Virus record (IMG/VR): IMGVR_UViG_2778261064_000011
Direction: 5' to 3' (one strand)
Length of the DNA stretch: 5,921 nt
Source of the DNA: a virus
Lineage: Duplodnaviria > Heunggongvirae > Uroviricota > Caudoviricetes
In this document: positions 1 through 5,921 of the stretch, piece after piece
Position numbering within the stretch: position 1 is the first letter of the stretch
How the letters are laid out: each line of letters begins with the position of its first letter
Notes under the pieces: model-generated
The model's database searches: none
The model's input: only the letters and a program-made list of their open reading frames with translations
Told to the model about the DNA's origin: nothing
Program-made: the position numbers and the translations under genes

Positions 1-602
1 GACGACCAGAGCGTTTTGTTCTGCAGCTGGTCTGTGGTGCTGTCCGGTGTCATCCTGCGCATCCGGATATTGAACGGTCGCGGCGGCAGGTTATCCACCA
101 CCACCGAGGCCAGATACTGCGACGTGGTTTTGCCCTTAATGGTGATGTCTTTTTCTGTCACCCAGCCACCGTTACGTTGTATCTGAACCAGCAGGCGGAC
201 TTCCGACGGATTCCGGTCACCCTTTGAGGTGGTTTCCACCAGTGCCCGCACACCGAAGGTAAAGCGCAGACGGTCGATGTTTGCAGACGTGATGGTCCGG
301 GTGATCGGCGTGTCGTATTTCACTTCCGTACCCAGCACCGTCTCGGAACCGGAGGATTCAAATCCCTCCGGCGGTGTCTGCTCCTGCTCACCTGCCCGGA
401 ACACCACCGTGACACCGGAGATGTTGGTATTCCCCTCACTGTCCAGCACCGGTGTACTGTTCAGCAGCACGCTTTTTAATCCATCCACCGGACCTTCAAT
501 CGGCCCTTCGCTGATGGCATCGATCACACTCAGCAGCTGCGTGGATTTCAGGTTATCCTTCGCTTCGCGCGGGGTATGCCCCTTACTGCTGCCTTTACCC
601 AT
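1..602 (-). CDS. J: Central tail fibre / host specificity protein J, N-terminal 200 codons only (3' end of gene lies beyond window start)
   Basis: Minus-strand ATG at 602..600. I translated the reverse complement of 481..602 directly as MGKGSSKGHTPREAKDNLKSTQLLSVIDAISEGPIEGPVDG, and of 1..60 as ...RRMTPDSTTDQLQNKTLWS, with the frame open to the window edge. This matches the lambda gpJ N-terminus as I recall it. GGAG Shine-Dalgarno 8 nt upstream. Not in the ORF track because there is no in-window stop. Confidence 0.93.
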   Translation of the reverse strand, partial: MGKGSSKGHTPREAKDNLKSTQLLSVIDAISEGPIEGPVDGLKSVLLNSTPVLDSEGNTNISGVTVVFRAGEQEQTPPEGFESSGSETVLGTEVKYDTPITRTITSANIDRLRFTFGVRALVETTSKGDRNPSEVRLLVQIQRNGGWVTEKDITIKGKTTSQYLASVVVDNLPPRPFNIRMRRMTPDSTTDQLQNKTLWS

Positions 603-610
603 TCGTCATG

Positions 611-614
611 CTCC
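611..614 (-). promoter_or_regulatory. Shine-Dalgarno (GGAG) for J
   Basis: Minus strand reads GGAG at 614..611, then 8-nt spacer (610..603), then J ATG at 602. Confidence 0.5.
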
Positions 615-624
615 ATAAACGACA

Positions 625-644
625 AAACCGCCCGGAGGCGGTTT
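625..644. other. Intercistronic stem-loop between I stop and J start (8-bp stem 625..632 / 637..644, 4-nt loop 633..636)
   Basis: Plus strand aaaccgcc-cgga-ggcggttt is a perfect inverted repeat. On the mRNA (minus) strand it reads AAACCGCC-UCCG-GGCGGUUU followed by UGUCGUUUAU, a U-rich tract. Confidence 0.45.
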
Positions 645-662
645 CACATAAAACATTTTGCA

Positions 663-1334
663 TCAGCGACCAATCACCACAACCTGACCACCGTCCCCTT
701 CGTCTGCCGTGCTGATCTCCTGAGAAACCACCCGCGACCCCACACGCATTTCACCGTACAGAACAGGCAAAACATTGCCCTGAGCAACCATGTTATCCAG
801 TGAGGAAAAATAGGTGTTCTGTTTGCCGTTATCCGTTGTCTGTGTACGGGGAGTTCTGGCTTTCGGTGCCAGCATCTGCGCCACACCACCGAGCACCATA
901 CTGGCACCGAGAGAAAACAGGATGCCGGTCATACCACCGGCCCCAATGGCTGCCCCCCATGCTGCAAGGGTGGCTCCGGCAGTAAAGAATGATCCGGCAA
1001 TGGCGGCAGCTCCCAGGACAATCTGGAATACACCACCTGACTTGGCCCCGGCGACTCTGGGAACAATATGAATCACAGCGCCATCAGGCAGAGTCTCATG
1101 TAACTGCGCCGTTAATCCGGACGTGCTGACATCCCGCCCGGCAATCCGTACCTGATACCAGCCGTCGCTCAGTTTCTGACGAAACGCCGGGAGCTGTGTG
1201 GCCAGCGCCCGGATAGCTTCAGCCCCCGTTTTCACACGAAGATCGATGCGGCGGCCAAATCGTTGCAAATCCCCGTAAAGGCAGATGCGTGCCATGCCCG
1301 GTGACGCCAGAGGGAGTGTGTGCGTCGCTGCCAT
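663..1334 (-). CDS. I: Tail tip assembly protein I (223 aa), ubiquitin-like N-terminal region and hydrophobic Gly/Ala-rich C-terminal half
   Basis: Complete ORF in track (MAATHTLPLASPGMARICLYGDLQRF...VVVIGR) with TGA stop at 665..663. Recognised as lambda gpI. Same strand and order as lambda. Start lies 103 nt inside K in a different frame. Confidence 0.92.
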   Translation of the reverse strand: MAATHTLPLASPGMARICLYGDLQRFGRRIDLRVKTGAEAIRALATQLPAFRQKLSDGWYQVRIAGRDVSTSGLTAQLHETLPDGAVIHIVPRVAGAKSGGVFQIVLGAAAIAGSFFTAGATLAAWGAAIGAGGMTGILFSLGASMVLGGVAQMLAPKARTPRTQTTDNGKQNTYFSSLDNMVAQGNVLPVLYGEMRVGSRVVSQEISTADEGDGGQVVVIGR

Positions 1335-1975
1335 TTGTCGGTATACCTCTCTCGTTTGCTCAGTTGTTCAGGAATATGGTGCAGCAGCTCGCCATCACCA
1401 CAGTAAATGGCGGCATGATTCGGCACCGATGAACCAAAACAGCACAGCAGCACATCGCCCGGTTGTGCTGATGACAACGGCACCTGATACAGCCCTGTGG
1501 CCTCCAGATTATCCAGATAGAGATTCTGACCGTGACGCCACCAGTCATCCTCGCGATGAAAATCCGGCATCTCAATCCCCGCCAGATGATAAGCATCCCG
1601 GAACAGCGTGTAACAGTCCGTCACCCCGTGCTCAAAGCGCCGCCCGGTGAGATGCGGCACACAGCGGAACTTATGAATCGTCCCCCGGCAGACCAGCCAC
1701 CACGGCAAATCACTCTGCACCTGCAGCCGCCGGTCGGCCTCACTCAGCCAGGGCAGACCACCGGGGTGGCTGTGGACCAGCGCCACAATCTCACCCTGCA
1801 TTTCTGCCTGCAGCCAGTCTTCCGGCGACATACGGAAATACGCCTCCGGCTCACCGGAGATATTCACGCAGGGGAAATATCTTTCCCCCTCCGGCGTGCT
1901 TACCACGAAGCCGCACGACTCCGCTGGCGCACATCGCCGGGCGTGCGCCAGAATCGCTGATTCTGCCTGTGTCAT
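1232..1975 (-). CDS. K: Tail tip assembly protein K (247-aa ORF), N-terminal JAB/MPN metalloprotease-like region plus C-terminal NlpC/P60-like cysteine peptidase region
   Basis: ORF MTQAESAILAHARRCAPAESCGFVV...HSHPGGLPWLSEAD... contains the JAMM signature H-x-H-x7-S-x2-D (HSHPGGLPWLSEAD) with an upstream Glu candidate (PAESCG), and a downstream Cys/His pair (GVTDCYTLF ... HAAIY) typical of NlpC/P60. ATG at 1975 lies 5 nt after the L stop with no Shine-Dalgarno, consistent with translational coupling. An alternative internal start (ATG at 1831, MSPEDW..., 199 aa) is preceded by GGAGG and matches the classical 199-aa lambda K length as I recall it. Confidence 0.88.
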   Translation of the reverse strand: MTQAESAILAHARRCAPAESCGFVVSTPEGERYFPCVNISGEPEAYFRMSPEDWLQAEMQGEIVALVHSHPGGLPWLSEADRRLQVQSDLPWWLVCRGTIHKFRCVPHLTGRRFEHGVTDCYTLFRDAYHLAGIEMPDFHREDDWWRHGQNLYLDNLEATGLYQVPLSSAQPGDVLLCCFGSSVPNHAAIYCGDGELLHHIPEQLSKRERYTDKWQRRTHSLWRHRAWHASAFTGICNDLAAASIFV

Positions 1976-1980
1976 GGGAT

Positions 1981-2679
1981 TTACTGCGAAAGTTTGTTAA
2001 TGGAAAGGAAGCCGCCAAAGTTGCCGACGTTATTGCGGAACTTACAACCGCTCAGGCATTTGCTGCATTTATCCTTCGTGATATCGGACGTTGGCTGGTC
2101 ATATTCATCCGCGACCGCCGGACCGTGATAACCGCACTCATCGCCGCGATAGGTCCAGGTGCAGGTGTTGGCCAGCATGATACGTCCCGGAAAAACAGCG
2201 CCGTCCGTTTCCGTCGGCGTGGACAGTACAAAAGAGGCACTCACCGCGCTCAGTTCGCTGCACTGCTCAATGCGCCAACGGCTGATCACCTCCTGCTCCG
2301 GATCGGCGTCACTGTTTCCGTTGACGAAGTTCACCGCATCCAGAAAACGGGCGTAAACCTTACGCCGGACCACCGTTCCGCCGACCAGACTCTGCAGATC
2401 TTCCGCCATCCCGGTGACCATACCGTACAGGTTAGAAACCGTCAGCGTGGGGCGCGTACTGGTGCCTTTGCCATTCAGTTCAAAACCACTCCCCTGAATG
2501 GGATACGGCTGATACTGTCGCCCCTGCCAGGTGACCGGCTCACCTTTTTCGTTCTGCTCATTACAGAAAAAATAACGTTCTCCACCGACCTCTGTCAGGT
2601 CGATTTCCCAGAGCACCACGCTGGCCGACTGCTCCGCACGGGTGCATTCATTCAGTGTTTCCTGCCGGATATCCTGCAT
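1981..2679 (-). CDS. L: Tail tip protein L (232 aa) with C-terminal cysteine cluster (putative iron-sulfur site)
   Basis: Complete ORF in track (MQDIRQETLNECTRAEQSASVVLWEIDLTEVGGERYFFCNEQ...). Recognised as lambda gpL. C-terminus carries clustered cysteines (...ANTCTWTYRGDECGYHG...KDKCSKCLSGCKF...). ATG at 2679 overlaps the M stop by 1 nt (minus strand TGATG). Confidence 0.93.
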   Translation of the reverse strand: MQDIRQETLNECTRAEQSASVVLWEIDLTEVGGERYFFCNEQNEKGEPVTWQGRQYQPYPIQGSGFELNGKGTSTRPTLTVSNLYGMVTGMAEDLQSLVGGTVVRRKVYARFLDAVNFVNGNSDADPEQEVISRWRIEQCSELSAVSASFVLSTPTETDGAVFPGRIMLANTCTWTYRGDECGYHGPAVADEYDQPTSDITKDKCSKCLSGCKFRNNVGNFGGFLSINKLSQ

Positions 2680-3008
2680 CAGTTCACCACCTGTTCAAAC
2701 TCTGCGCTGAACTCAACACGCAGCATACTGACCCGCGACGACCATTTTGCGCAGGTCACCTTTATCTGCCGCCACTCATAAGGCGGCGTCCACAGAAAGG
2801 CTTTCCAGCCCCCGTGCTCTTCCAGAAACGACTCCAGTACCGTGGCCTCCTCACGGGGGACAGAAAGCGTCACGCTGTACGTTTTCAGGTTGGCATTCAG
2901 CCCGGCAGGCGCTCGCTGGGAATAGCCATCACCAAAGCGCACCTTTCTTACAGAAGGGGCCGAAGCCACATCCATACCGGGTTTCACTTTCCAGCGGAAG
3001 GTTTTCAT
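2679..3008 (-). CDS. M: Tail tip protein M (109 aa)
   Basis: Complete ORF in track (MKTFRWKVKPGMDVASAPSVRKVRFGDGYSQRAPAGLNANLKTYSVTLSVPREEATVLESFLEEHGGWKAFLWTPPYEWRQIKVTCAKWSSRVSMLRVEFSAEFEQVVN). Recognised as lambda gpM. GGAGG Shine-Dalgarno at 3019..3015, 6 nt before the ATG. The ATG overlaps the H stop by 4 nt. Confidence 0.93.
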   Translation of the reverse strand: MKTFRWKVKPGMDVASAPSVRKVRFGDGYSQRAPAGLNANLKTYSVTLSVPREEATVLESFLEEHGGWKAFLWTPPYEWRQIKVTCAKWSSRVSMLRVEFSAEFEQVVN

Positions 3009-5566
3009 CGTCCACCTCCGGAGAACAGACCACCATCACGCATCTGCCCGGTCACAACATCCATTGCCGCCTTACGGGCTACGTCATAAACAGCCTTCAG
3101 CGCCTGTGGCCCTATCTGACCGTTCGTGCCGTCGTTGTTAATCACCACATGGTTATTCTGCTCAAACGTCCCGGACGCCTGCGACCGACTGTCCGCCATG
3201 CTGCCCGGTGTACCGACATAACCGCCGGTGGCATAGCCGCGCATCAGCCGGTAAAGATTCCCCACGCCAATCCGGCTGGTTGCCTCCTTGGTGAAGACAA
3301 ATTCACCACGGTGAACAATCCCCGCTGGCTCATATTTGCCGCCGGTTCCCGTAAATCCTCCGGTCGCAAAATGGAGTTTCGCCGCAGCTGCCTGAATGGC
3401 TGTACCGCCTGACGCTGATGCGCCACCACTGGCAGCACCGCCAATGGCGCTGCCGATACTCCCGACAATCCCCACCATTGCCTGCTTAAGCAGAATTTCT
3501 GTCATCATGGACAGCACGGAACGGGTGAAGCTGCGCCAGTTCTGTTCACTGCCGGTCAGCATCGCCGCCATATTCTGTGCAATACCATCAAAGGTCTGCG
3601 TGGCTGCACTTTTAACCTGCGACATACTGTCCGTGGCGCTCTCTTCCCACTCACTCCAGCCTGACCTGAGGCCTGCCATCCAGCTCCCACGAAGCTGGTC
3701 TTCAGCCGCCCAGGTCTTTTTCTGCTCTGACATGACGCTATTCAGCGCCAGCGGATTATCGCCATACTGTTCCTTCAGGCGCTGTTCCGTGGCGTCCCGC
3801 GCTGCCTGCCGGTCAGTCAGCCCCCGGTTTTTCGCATCAATGGCTGCCCGTTTTGCCCGTTGTTGCTGTGCGAATTTATCCGCCTGCTGCGCCAGCGCAT
3901 TCAGGTGCTCCTGATACGTGACCTTATCGCCAAGTGCAGCCAGCTGGCGTTTGTACTCCAGCGTCTCGTCTTTATGCGCCAGCAGGGATTTCTCCTGTGC
4001 GGACAGCTGGCGACGTTGTGCCGCCTCCTCCAGTACCGCGAACTGACTTTCTGCCTTCCACAAATCCCGGCGCTGCTGGCTGATTTTCTCATTCGCTCCG
4101 GCATGCTTCTCCAGTGTCCGGAGTTCTGCCTGAAGCGTCAGCAGGGCAGCATGAGCACTGTCTTCCTGACGATCGCCCGCAGACACCTTCACGCCGGACT
4201 GTTTCGGCTTTTTCAGCGTCGCTTCATAATCCTTTTTCGCCGCCGCCATCAGCGTGTTGTAATCTGCCTGCAGGATTTTCCCGTCTTTCAGTGCCTTGTT
4301 CAGTTCTTCCTGACGGGCGGTATATTTCTCCAGCGGCGTCTGCAGCCGTTCGTAAGCCTTCTGCGCCTCTTCGGTATATTTCAGCCGTGACGCTTCGGTA
4401 TCGCTCTGCTGCTGCGCATTTTTGTCCTGTTGACTCTGCTGTTCAGCCTTCTTTCGGGCGGCTTCAAGCGCAAGACGGGCCTTTTCACGATCATCCCAGT
4501 AACGCGCCCGCGCTTCATCGTTAACAAAATAATCATCCTTGCGCAGATTCCAGATGTCGTCCGCTTTCTTAAACGCAGCCTCTGCCTTAATCAGCATCTC
4601 CTGAGCGGTATCAGGACGACCAATATCCAGCACCGCATCCCACATGGATTTGAATGCCCGTGCTGTCCTGTCTGCCCAGGTTTCCAGCGTGCCCATGTTC
4701 TCTTTCAAGCGTCGGGTCTGGTCATCAAACCCTTTCGTTGCGGCCTCGTTCGCCGCCTGCAATGCCCCGGCTTCATCGCCGGAACGCTGCAACTGAGCAA
4801 CATACGCAATCTGCTCCGCCGTCACGTTATGGAACTGGCGCGCCATCGCCGTCAGCCCCGACGTCGGGTCAGTGGTCAGCTTCCCGAAGGCTTCAGCGAC
4901 CTTGTCCACCTCCACACCGGATGCAGAGGAGAAACGCGCCACACTCTGGCTGATGGACGCAATCTGAGCCTCACCGCTTACCCCCGCCTTAACCAGTGCA
5001 CTGAGTGACTCGCTGGTCTGGTTAAACGTCAGCCCTGCAGCCTGCCCGGCTCTGGACAGGACCAGCATACGATCTGCCGTCAGTCCCGCCTGATTACCGG
5101 AAAGGACCAGCGTTTTGTTGAAATCGGACAGGGTTGAGTTACCCTGATACCAGGCATACGCCAGCGCACCGGTCGCCACCGCCAGCGAGGTGGCCCCGAC
5201 CATCGGCAGGGTGATCGCACCGGCAAGCCCCCGGAACATGGGGATCATCCCGCCGAAGGAGTCCTTAACCTGACCACCCTGTTGCAGCAGGATCAGCCAC
5301 GGGCTTTGCCCGCCTGCAAGCTGCGTGGCCACGTCGGTGAACTGTGCAGGCAGCATACGCATGGCGGCTTTATACTGCCCGACGGAAATCCCCGCTTTCT
5401 GTGCAGCCAGCGCCTGTCGGCTCAGCGACTGTTCAACGACTGCCGCTGTTTTTTTCGCATCACTTTCCGTACCGGAAAAATGACGCCTGACTCTGGCCAT
5501 CTGCTCGTCAAATCTGGCCGCATCCAGACTTAAATCAACGACCAGATCGCCTACCGGTTCAGCCAT
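3005..5566 (-). CDS. H: Tail tape measure protein H (853 aa)
   Basis: Single 2562-nt ORF. Translation (MAEPVGDLVVDLSLDAARFDEQMARVRRHF...) recognised as lambda gpH. N-terminal-proximal hydrophobic segment (GLAGAITLPMVGATSLAVATGALAYAWY), long central Ala/Gln/Lys/Glu/Arg-rich coiled-coil-like region, Gly-rich hydrophobic C-terminal segment (GIVGSIGSAIGGAASGGASASGG). Strong Shine-Dalgarno AGGAGGA 7 nt upstream. ATG overlaps T stop by 8 nt. Confidence 0.95.
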   Translation of the reverse strand: MAEPVGDLVVDLSLDAARFDEQMARVRRHFSGTESDAKKTAAVVEQSLSRQALAAQKAGISVGQYKAAMRMLPAQFTDVATQLAGGQSPWLILLQQGGQVKDSFGGMIPMFRGLAGAITLPMVGATSLAVATGALAYAWYQGNSTLSDFNKTLVLSGNQAGLTADRMLVLSRAGQAAGLTFNQTSESLSALVKAGVSGEAQIASISQSVARFSSASGVEVDKVAEAFGKLTTDPTSGLTAMARQFHNVTAEQIAYVAQLQRSGDEAGALQAANEAATKGFDDQTRRLKENMGTLETWADRTARAFKSMWDAVLDIGRPDTAQEMLIKAEAAFKKADDIWNLRKDDYFVNDEARARYWDDREKARLALEAARKKAEQQSQQDKNAQQQSDTEASRLKYTEEAQKAYERLQTPLEKYTARQEELNKALKDGKILQADYNTLMAAAKKDYEATLKKPKQSGVKVSAGDRQEDSAHAALLTLQAELRTLEKHAGANEKISQQRRDLWKAESQFAVLEEAAQRRQLSAQEKSLLAHKDETLEYKRQLAALGDKVTYQEHLNALAQQADKFAQQQRAKRAAIDAKNRGLTDRQAARDATEQRLKEQYGDNPLALNSVMSEQKKTWAAEDQLRGSWMAGLRSGWSEWEESATDSMSQVKSAATQTFDGIAQNMAAMLTGSEQNWRSFTRSVLSMMTEILLKQAMVGIVGSIGSAIGGAASGGASASGGTAIQAAAAKLHFATGGFTGTGGKYEPAGIVHRGEFVFTKEATSRIGVGNLYRLMRGYATGGYVGTPGSMADSRSQASGTFEQNNHVVINNDGTNGQIGPQALKAVYDVARKAAMDVVTGQMRDGGLFSGGGR
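3015..3019 (-). promoter_or_regulatory. Shine-Dalgarno (GGAGG) for M, embedded in the 3' end of H
   Basis: Minus strand reads GGAGG at 3019..3015, then 6-nt spacer, then ATG at 3008. Confidence 0.5.
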
Positions 5567-5921
5567 ACCGGACTCCTCCTGCGATCCCTTCTGATACTGT
5601 CATCAGCATTACGTCATCCTCCGTCATGCCCGCCATATCCGGGGAAGCGGGGATAACTTCATTTCCGTCCGGGTCAAAGCGGACGCCTCCGGTAAGCCCT
5701 GCCGCTTTCTGCATCAGCACATCATCTTCAGGCTCTTCGTCATCCTCACGCCGGTTCAGCAAACTGAAATCCAGCGGATGCATATCCGGATCGCTGAAAA
5801 ACAGGCTGAGCACAGTGTACGTCAGCCCGGAAAAGTGCATATCCGTAACCGGCTCATTTAAACCGTCTGGTCTGTTTCCTCCGGCTCTACAAAAATAATG
5901 TCCATCATTTTTAATGGACAC
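5559..5921 (-). CDS. T: Tail assembly chaperone T-frame product, C-terminal 120 codons (5' end beyond window; in lambda made only as a G-T frameshift fusion)
   Basis: Open frame from the window edge to TGA at 5561..5559. Acidic stretch (NRREDDEEPEDDV) and C-terminus ...MTVSEGIAGGVRYG. Position immediately upstream of H with 8-nt overlap matches lambda T. The first codon in the window is an internal GTG, not a start; the track's initial M is an artefact. Confidence 0.82.
   Translation of the reverse strand: MSIKNDGHYFCRAGGNRPDGLNEPVTDMHFSGLTYTVLSLFFSDPDMHPLDFSLLNRREDDEEPEDDVLMQKAAGLTGGVRFDPDGNEVIPASPDMAGMTEDDVMLMTVSEGIAGGVRYG
5574..5580 (-). promoter_or_regulatory. Shine-Dalgarno (AGGAGGA) for H, embedded in the 3' end of T
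   Basis: Minus strand reads AGGAGGA at 5580..5574, then 7-nt spacer, then ATG at 5566. Confidence 0.55.

Follow-up and report, generated by a model that had tools for sequence, protein, structure and literature searches.

Why does a lambda-like tail operon, in which most genes run into one another, hold between genes I and J a 60-nt gap containing a perfect GC-rich hairpin directly ahead of the J ribosome-binding site? We addressed this question in the window, i.e., the whole 5,921-nt stretch of Caudoviricetes DNA analyzed here, and in related phages and prophages. The I-J element is of an ordinary, known kind, already annotated as a predicted terminator in public records. What is new is comparative: distant lambda-like tail modules keep the element by its structure, and it marks a hot spot for accessory genes.

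Gene order and nearest relatives of the window

The minus strand of the window encodes a tail operon resembling those of lambda and 434, which runs from the end of T through H, M, L, K, and I to the start of J. The genes were assigned from the open reading frame (ORF) list and translations, I additionally by its match to the annotated I of 434 and lambda, and J from its translation:

5559-5921, minus strand: ORF, end of the G-T frameshift product
3005-5566, minus strand: H
2679-3008, minus strand: M
1981-2679, minus strand: L
1232-1975, minus strand: K; the ATG at 1975 is the start in the 434 record
663-1334, minus strand: gene I, tail-tip assembly protein, 223 aa
1-602, minus strand: start of gene J, central tail fibre/host specificity protein

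The J ATG lies at 602-600, and the first 200 codons of the gene fall within the window, with the rest beyond its edge; this part is 99.5% identical to J of phage 434. The closest phage record to the window as a whole is also 434 (98.5% identity), lambda itself standing at 96.8%, and 4711 of 5426 complete E. coli genomes contain the same tail cluster, the best match being 98.8%. The DNA therefore derives from a phage or prophage of the lambda-like kind. The sequence-only reading from which this study started had described all the other gene junctions as overlaps of 1 to 103 nt. This is correct for T/H (8 nt), H/M (4 nt), L/M (1 nt), and K/I (103 nt), but not for L and K: L ends at 1981 and K, with the start used in the 434 record, begins at 1975, leaving them 5 nt apart (1976-1980) and without overlap. 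The lambda reference annotation has a shorter K, which starts further downstream than 1975.

At the far end of the window, the last 77 bases (5845-5921, in the T part of the G-T product) have no megablast-level alignment to 434, lambda, or the best E. coli matches, to all of which the rest of the window does align; judged by these alignments, the boundary is a mosaic breakpoint. The same end holds a 10-bp AT-rich hairpin at 5898-5921, followed by UAUUUUUG, which is on the list of the terminator scan. Sequences 96-100% identical to lambda J also turned up on short, low-coverage contigs of unrelated organisms (L088-L101 and L104-L131), including Neobacillus, Kitasatospora, Bradyrhizobium, Shewanella, Chromatium, and others; these look like lambda DNA contamination of assemblies.

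Anatomy of the element in the I-J gap

The gap occupies positions 603-662 and, read in the direction of transcription from the end of I to the start of J, is organized as follows:

665-663, minus strand: gene I stop codon TGA, from the sequence
645-662, minus strand: spacer of 18 nt from the I stop to the hairpin, with 9 variable columns among close relatives (alignment A2)
647-656, minus strand: possible 5' strand AUGUUUUAUG of a weak, G-U-rich lower helix, predicted to pair with 608-617 (UAUGGAGCAU)
644-637, minus strand: hairpin 5' arm AAACCGCC, changed in relatives only by a C-to-U that preserves pairing as G-U
636-633, minus strand: tetraloop UCCG, of the UNCG type with a C-G closing pair, from the sequence
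632-625, minus strand: hairpin 3' arm GGCGGUUU, from the sequence
627-615, minus strand: U-rich tract UUUUGUCGUUUAU, whose first three U double as the base of the stem
614-611, minus strand: J Shine-Dalgarno GGAG, 8 nt before the ATG, the annotated ribosome-binding site in the 434 record

The initial description of a 60-nt gap with a perfect 8-bp hairpin at 625-644, followed by UUUUGUCGUUUAU, GGAG, and the J ATG, is exact to the base. Five of the eight pairs are G-C, and the hairpin and U-tract are oriented along the strand that codes for I and J. Thus, the gap combines a GC-rich stem and a short loop, a U-rich tract 3' of the stem, and co-orientation with the transcript; with both the anatomy and the orientation of an intrinsic terminator in place, calling the element terminator-like was justified. 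A bidirectional terminator was considered and rejected, as the opposite strand after the stem has only UUUCACAUAAAAC, which makes a poor tail. The ORF list has no ORF inside the 60-nt gap, and the promoter scan calls no promoter-like site in or beside it, on which ground a J promoter downstream of the hairpin was rejected for the window. A search of window positions 300-1000 on both strands against Rfam 15 gave no matches at E values up to 1.

Scanning the entire window identified 625-644 as its sole perfect Watson-Crick hairpin of at least 8 bp with a loop of 3-8 nt. One such hairpin somewhere in 5.9 kb is unsurprising because dinucleotide shuffles average 0.72 per window (the probability of at least one being 0.47). 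The same shuffles give an expectation of 0.007 for a given 60-nt stretch, and a chance origin of the I-J hairpin was rejected on its position and on the conservation described below. Folding across the gap, which had been suggested as a check, returned a stable hairpin, with the local fold of 615-650 (36 nt) at -16.2 kcal/mol (z = -3.8; 1 of 200 shuffles was equally stable) and the larger fold of 590-680 (91 nt) at -28.5 kcal/mol (z = -2.0).

The window's I-J site is missing from the list of the built-in terminator scan because the maximal 10-pair stem, which includes G-U pairs, leaves fewer than 5 T among the 8 bases that follow. When shorter stems are permitted, the site is listed, the 7-bp stem passing the threshold of at least 5 T in 8, and the built-in scan itself lists the I-J elements of relatives with runs of T6-T8. 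The interruption of the window's U-tract (UUUUGUCGU), taken together with the lack of a built-in call, suggests that this copy is possibly a weak terminator.

Existing annotation of the site

Ever since the genomes of lambdoid phages were sequenced, terminators have been noticed within their single late operon, and several records mark one at this junction. The phage 434 record (OL657226) has a "regulatory: terminator" feature at 15466-15485, which is the I-J hairpin, and annotates the J ribosome-binding site at 15493-15496. HK639 (NC_016158) has a terminator annotated in its 55-nt I-J gap. In phi80 (FN582354), the moron MorF, a lipoprotein gene with its own promoter, is annotated between I and J, along with a "putative rho-independent transcription terminator" just before J, 16 nt away. 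Lambda carries the same hairpin with the loop UGCG, and its reference record has no features within 15445-15504. The sequence-only reading was right about the hairpin itself but missed both these terminator annotations and the role of the I-J gap as an insertion site. In the searchable literature, we found no functional study of the I-J element and no functional data on the I-J site or on lambda late-operon terminators.

Conservation among lambda-type relatives

The 116 lambda-type loci reduce to 35 distinct 78-nt sequences across the gap (alignment A2). Among these, 22 of the 60 gap columns vary, with variation in 1 of 16 stem columns versus 21 of 44 elsewhere in the gap (Fisher p = 0.0028), and the sole change in the stem is a C-to-U opposite a G, which keeps the pair. 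The loop takes the forms UCCG, UGCG, UCAG, and UCUG, its positions 2 and 3 varying freely. Pairing in the upper helix is 100%, with two one-sided pairing-preserving changes and no two-sided ones, and with so little variation the shuffles do equally well. At this depth, the evidence from the lambda-type loci is of purifying selection on the stem and not of covariation.

Conservation across lineages

A further 240 loci were gathered with the first 200 J residues of HK639, phi80, and BP-4795 as queries, and the end of I and the start of J were located in each to obtain the gap length:

Lambda type: empty gap of 59-61 nt (113 loci); longer gap of 477 nt (1 locus)
phi80 type: empty gap of 35-54 nt (63 loci); longer gaps of 625-631 nt (16 loci)
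HK639 type: empty gap of 54-56 nt (77 loci); longer gaps of 496, 541, and 941 nt (4 loci)
mEpX1: I-J gap of 52 nt; no longer gap listed
BP-4795/Stx-prophage type: no empty gap, all being 234-343 nt or longer; longer gaps of 851 and 1599 nt
ES18: I-J gap of 9 nt, hairpin absent

A terminator-like hairpin lies no more than 70 nt upstream of J in all 271 loci scored in three lineages (112/112 lambda type, 78/78 phi80 type, and 81/81 HK639 type), against a background for the same scan, on the same strand of the same loci, of 0.15-0.42 hits per kb, or about 0.01-0.03 expected per 70 nt. At the same junction, phi80-, HK639-, mEpX1-, Stx-prophage-, and T1-type phages have a hairpin and U-tract with unrelated stem sequences. 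The distance between the hairpin and the J ATG is 16-23 nt in four lineages and 41-50 nt in the Stx-prophage-type loci. Across lineages, counts anchored on the loop gave 15 different 6-bp stems, in which positions 2-6 are each occupied by standard pairs of 3-5 kinds; in 51 of 53 cases a C-G pair closes the loop, and loops of the UNCG type are frequent.

With stems unrelated in sequence, the cross-lineage MAFFT alignments (A1, A3, and A4) were out of structural register and were dropped in favor of an ungapped alignment of 23 distinct phi80- and HK639-type sequences anchored by distance to the ATG (A5). The A5 sequences, which had been selected beforehand for six in-register pairs and stand for perhaps five independent types of stem, have 96.7% of their cells paired. 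In shuffles the figure is 73.4%, with none of 500 attaining the observed one, and shifting the 3' partner along brings it to 31-59%. Under the same pre-filtering, both-sided changes occur in 5 of 8 pairs, and the covariation score is 0.54 versus 0.14 in shuffles; these changes may reflect replacement by recombination rather than stepwise compensation. In either case, the I-J junction keeps a terminator-shaped element but not its sequence. Preservation of the stem among related phages, which the initial interpretation had named as a check, is thus borne out, by structure and not by sequence. A covariance model built from A5 (R1) gives the window hairpin only 12.9 bits (E = 0.04) and picks up other terminators as well. 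Given this lack of specificity, we claim shared position and architecture, and not sequence homology, between the lambda-type elements and those of the phi80 and HK639 types.

Two of these lineages have additional terminator-like structures. In the phi80-type loci (L218-L297), a second strong sense-strand terminator-like hairpin is present about 2150 nt upstream of J, inside the tail cluster, in 55 loci. BP-4795 (L133, 1255-1500) and about 45 related loci with gaps of 234-260 nt have an opposite-strand terminator right after the I stop (CCCGCAG...CTGCGGG preceded by A7) and a second, sense terminator 41-50 nt before J; the roughly 140 nt between the two, in which no ORF exceeds 41 codons, could represent a small gene or a small RNA.

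The element also occurs outside temperate phages. In T1-like phages (SH6 and 17 of the 18 related contigs), I and J are 77 nt apart, and the gap reads AACCCGC-CUUGC-GCGGGUU-U8, with a conserved TATAAT next and then a leader of some 35 nt. The corresponding gap of the Webervirus MezzoGao is 87 nt long and contains an 11-bp hairpin together with a T5 run. Both hairpins are terminator-like according to the built-in scan, which calls no promoter. The T1-like TATAAT (L379, 1914-1967; L382-L399) is perfectly conserved, 6-7 nt past the U8 and about 35 nt before the J ribosome-binding site; it has no recognizable -35 element, and the promoter scan makes no call on it. In these virulent phages, J may start its own transcription unit. 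A Mannheimia phage has an I-J gap of 2 nt without the hairpin and a terminator after K instead. In the lineages whose hairpin is distant from J (41-77 nt), the U-tract still follows the hairpin, which indicates that it goes with the hairpin and not with the ribosome-binding site. Taken together, the comparative data indicate that the I-J element is under selection.

The I-J gap as an insertion site

The longer gaps accommodate diverse accessory genes. Two lambda-type loci (L047 and L042) have a gene for a 112-aa lipoprotein between I and J, 16 phi80-type loci have MorF, and the HK639-type inserts comprise ORFs of 138 aa and 265 aa and a 541-nt insert that has no clear ORF. The gap of Stx-prophage-type and E. 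albertii loci contains, on the opposite strand, the Cu/Zn superoxide dismutase gene sodC (PF00080, E = 3.9e-32). The sodC loci (L358, 1650-2500; L109; L112) have no sense-strand hairpin beside J, and the 1599-nt gap of L356 is occupied by an insertion sequence (IS) with two transposase-like ORFs. Most inserts have a G+C content of 0.37-0.43, compared with 0.53-0.58 in the flanks, while the gaps with sodC and the 265-aa ORF are at 0.50. The comparisons mark the I-J gap as a recurrent insertion hot spot for accessory genes.

Insertions in L047 and in the phi80- and HK639-type loci lie upstream of the hairpin, and where the cargo is in the sense direction, the hairpin remains 16-22 nt from J. The hairpin at the cargo site is the same as, or clearly homologous to, that of empty-site relatives in L146 and L047, and differs from it in three other cargo cases, suggesting that the resident terminator is sometimes reused and sometimes replaced. 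Relative to the typical make-up of a moron, the window has the 3' terminator, its hairpin sitting where the phi80 MorF terminator and the hairpin of the L047 lipoprotein gene sit. It has neither an extra ORF nor a promoter of its own; an extra ORF is found in relatives such as L047 and the phi80-, HK639-, and Stx-prophage-type loci.

Similar hairpins elsewhere in late operons

The I-J element is one of several of its kind in the late operon of phage 434 (L378, OL657226), where predicted terminators are annotated at D-E, I-J, J-lom, lom-stf, and after tfa. All six gaps of more than 40 nt in this operon hold a GC-rich hairpin with a 4-6-nt loop, and five of the six are annotated as terminators; the sixth, a UUCG hairpin in the E-FI gap, is not. 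The gaps other than I-J are at 6079-6133, 7160-7200, 18919-18987, 19588-19651, and 21237-21300. Four of these hairpins are just ahead of the next ribosome-binding site, and one precedes the major capsid gene E, indicating that elements of this class do not generally serve to turn a gene down. Near-identical hairpin/U-tract modules stand directly ahead of E and stf. R1 also matches the lom-stf junction (L378, 19614-19654) and the pre-I junction of mEpX1 (L136, 770-806) over its full length, with 32-35 bits and E values of about 1e-8 to 1e-9, the shared module being hairpin/U-tract/UGGRKG/AUG. In mEpX1, such a module is closely preceded by a 74-aa ORF (gp20), located between K and I.

Proposed function and alternative explanations

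We propose, with a confidence that is about even, that the I-J element is a Rho-independent terminator that stops RNA polymerase lacking the Q modification and is read through in lytic growth. Its anatomy, its orientation, and the association of the U-tract with the hairpin wherever the latter lies all argue for a signal that RNA polymerase reads, in other words for an intrinsic terminator. Q-antiterminated polymerase transcribes the late operons of lambdoid phages, and for terminators within them Zaworski et al. put forward two roles, as proposals and not as established functions (PMC8022706). The Q dependence of late expression suggests, as the likely logic, that Q-modified polymerase ignores the signal and that unmodified polymerase stops at it. 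Such a logic fits the architecture of morons, whose own promoter and terminator permit expression from repressed prophages (PMC3594210), the high expression of sodCI of the Gifsy-2 prophage in lysogens in which the lytic genes are silent (PMC7067206), and one of the two roles proposed in PMC8022706. In mechanistic terms, the hairpin and U-tract would release polymerase without the late antiterminator modification, which might derive from prophage-state transcription of morons inserted in the gap or from stray promoters inside the tail genes, and release at this point would insulate J and the downstream genes. In lytic growth, Q-modified polymerase would pass the signal, and the single late transcript would still provide for J. 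The hairpin, being very stable, would also fold in this read-through mRNA and might offer an additional barrier to 3'-to-5' exonucleases. Against the terminator explanation counts the emptiness of 113 of 114 lambda-type gaps, in which no accessory gene precedes the hairpin and no transcript is known that would need a stop, as does the lack of the hairpin in ES18, the Mannheimia phage, and the sodC prophages with their antisense cargo. Furthermore, insulation of the prophage cannot be the sole role, since the virulent T1-like phages, which have no prophage state, keep the element.

The hairpin could instead act after transcription, on the read-through mRNA, a reading that we consider doubtful and that might take one of three forms. 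It might be a barrier to 3' exonucleases or a processing point, giving the upstream and downstream segments of the mRNA different stabilities; it might shield the J ribosome-binding site from upstream sequence and block re-initiation by ribosomes leaving I; or, in the lambda type only, the lower helix might hide the J Shine-Dalgarno until the ribosome finishing I melts it. The stability of the hairpin and its closeness to the J ATG in four lineages are consistent with such roles, as is the placement of a hairpin in each of the larger 434 gaps, four ahead of a ribosome-binding site and one before E. Further backing comes from the minimum-energy fold of 590-680 (frequency 0.22), where 647-656 pairs with 608-617 and covers the GGAG, and from the phi80-, HK639-, and mEpX1-type sequences, where the binding site is usually computed to be costlier to open once the 5' arm is shuffled. 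In the lineage of the window itself, however, opening the J binding site costs 7.1 kcal/mol in the native sequence and 6.0-7.2 kcal/mol with the hairpin deleted or shuffled, so that modelling shows no loss of accessibility and no consistent effect in the lambda type. The lower helix has 95.7% of its cells paired in the 35 relatives, with 15 broken and no two-sided, compensatory change, shuffles do equally well, and the minimum-energy fold of the lambda reference variant lacks this helix. Neither stability nor insulation needs a U-tract, yet the U-tract is universal and stays with hairpins that are far from J.

According to the sequence-only reading, the hairpin might set the stoichiometry of J. 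This would require a leaky terminator that also acts on Q-modified polymerase, lowering J mRNA and hence the copy number of J, and we rate it as rather improbable. The necessary terminator anatomy is present, and in T1-like phages, which are not known to have an antitermination system, the terminator followed by the conserved TATAAT would fit a separate control of J. Yet Q-modified polymerase reads through terminators over more than 20 kb, and the genes immediately upstream are likewise low-copy, M, L, K, and I being needed in few copies or not being in the virion. The dependence of late lambdoid transcription on Q antitermination (PMC8022706), the presence of the same module before the major capsid gene E and stf, and the hairpin-less gaps of ES18 (9 nt) and the Mannheimia phage (2 nt) all speak against dosage control, and the claim finds no support in our data. 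A functionless relic, either the terminator of a deleted accessory gene or a recombination scar at a module boundary, would be in keeping with the insertions and deletions that the gap undergoes. The clear homology between the L047 hairpin, which follows a lipoprotein gene, and the hairpin of empty lambda-type sites agrees with this, and in moron-bearing phi80-type and some HK639-type loci, the hairpin differs from that of empty-site relatives, as if borne by the insert. A relic would nonetheless hardly be retained in 271 of 271 loci of three lineages, with a stem significantly less variable than the surrounding gap and pairing maintained through one-sided and two-sided changes, in compact phage genomes that shed useless spacers; we regard this reading as highly improbable.

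The element is present in lambda itself, in non-coding DNA, and its stem can be disrupted and repaired without affecting a protein. If it insulates accessory genes expressed from the prophage, this would explain how virulence and exclusion genes, such as sodC or those for lipoproteins, could settle in the middle of an essential operon. For annotators, the message is that the I-J gap of this tail cluster can be expected to hold a terminator and, often, cargo. A broader and more speculative view, to which we attach little confidence, is that the I-J terminator is an old, selected punctuation mark of the tail-tip clusters of temperate and virulent siphoviruses and, at the same time, a landing pad for cargo. 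If this were so, a gene arriving upstream of it would at once gain a 3' end and be insulated from J, which would explain why such unrelated cargo (lipoproteins, MorF, sodC, endonuclease-like ORFs, and IS elements) is found here, and the element might also tune J in phages without antitermination.

Comparison with known systems

The closest counterparts of the I-J element are other predicted terminators of lambdoid late operons, namely those at D-E, J-lom, and lom-stf in 434 and the one after the procapsid module in phage L/P22. Like it, they consist of a GC-rich tetraloop hairpin with a U-tract in the sense orientation and occur in the rare gaps of a tightly packed operon with a single Q-dependent promoter. 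Nothing essential sets the I-J element apart from them, and it is best seen as one more instance. A second parallel is with the terminators of morons, such as the gene 15 moron of HK97 and MorF of phi80. The phi80 terminator, 16 nt before J, holds the position of the window hairpin, and in L047, a lipoprotein gene lies upstream of a hairpin homologous to that of the window. In contrast to these morons, the window gap has no ORF or promoter-like site, and the terminator stands alone at an "empty" site.

Other systems are more remote. In phage T7, the leaky terminator T-phi, which follows the major capsid gene 10, reduces transcription of the lower-copy structural genes located downstream. As a leaky terminator inside a late gene cluster, it is the model behind the idea of J dosage control; however, T7 uses its own polymerase without antitermination, whereas the I-J element faces the Q-modified late polymerase, and the same kind of hairpin stands before the most abundant capsid gene. 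REP elements, as in malE-malF, are intercistronic stem-loops that can block 3'-to-5' exonucleases and confer segment-specific mRNA stability. They form a repeated sequence family without a U-tract, whereas the I-J hairpin is single-copy, without an Rfam match, and is followed by a U-tract of the terminator type.
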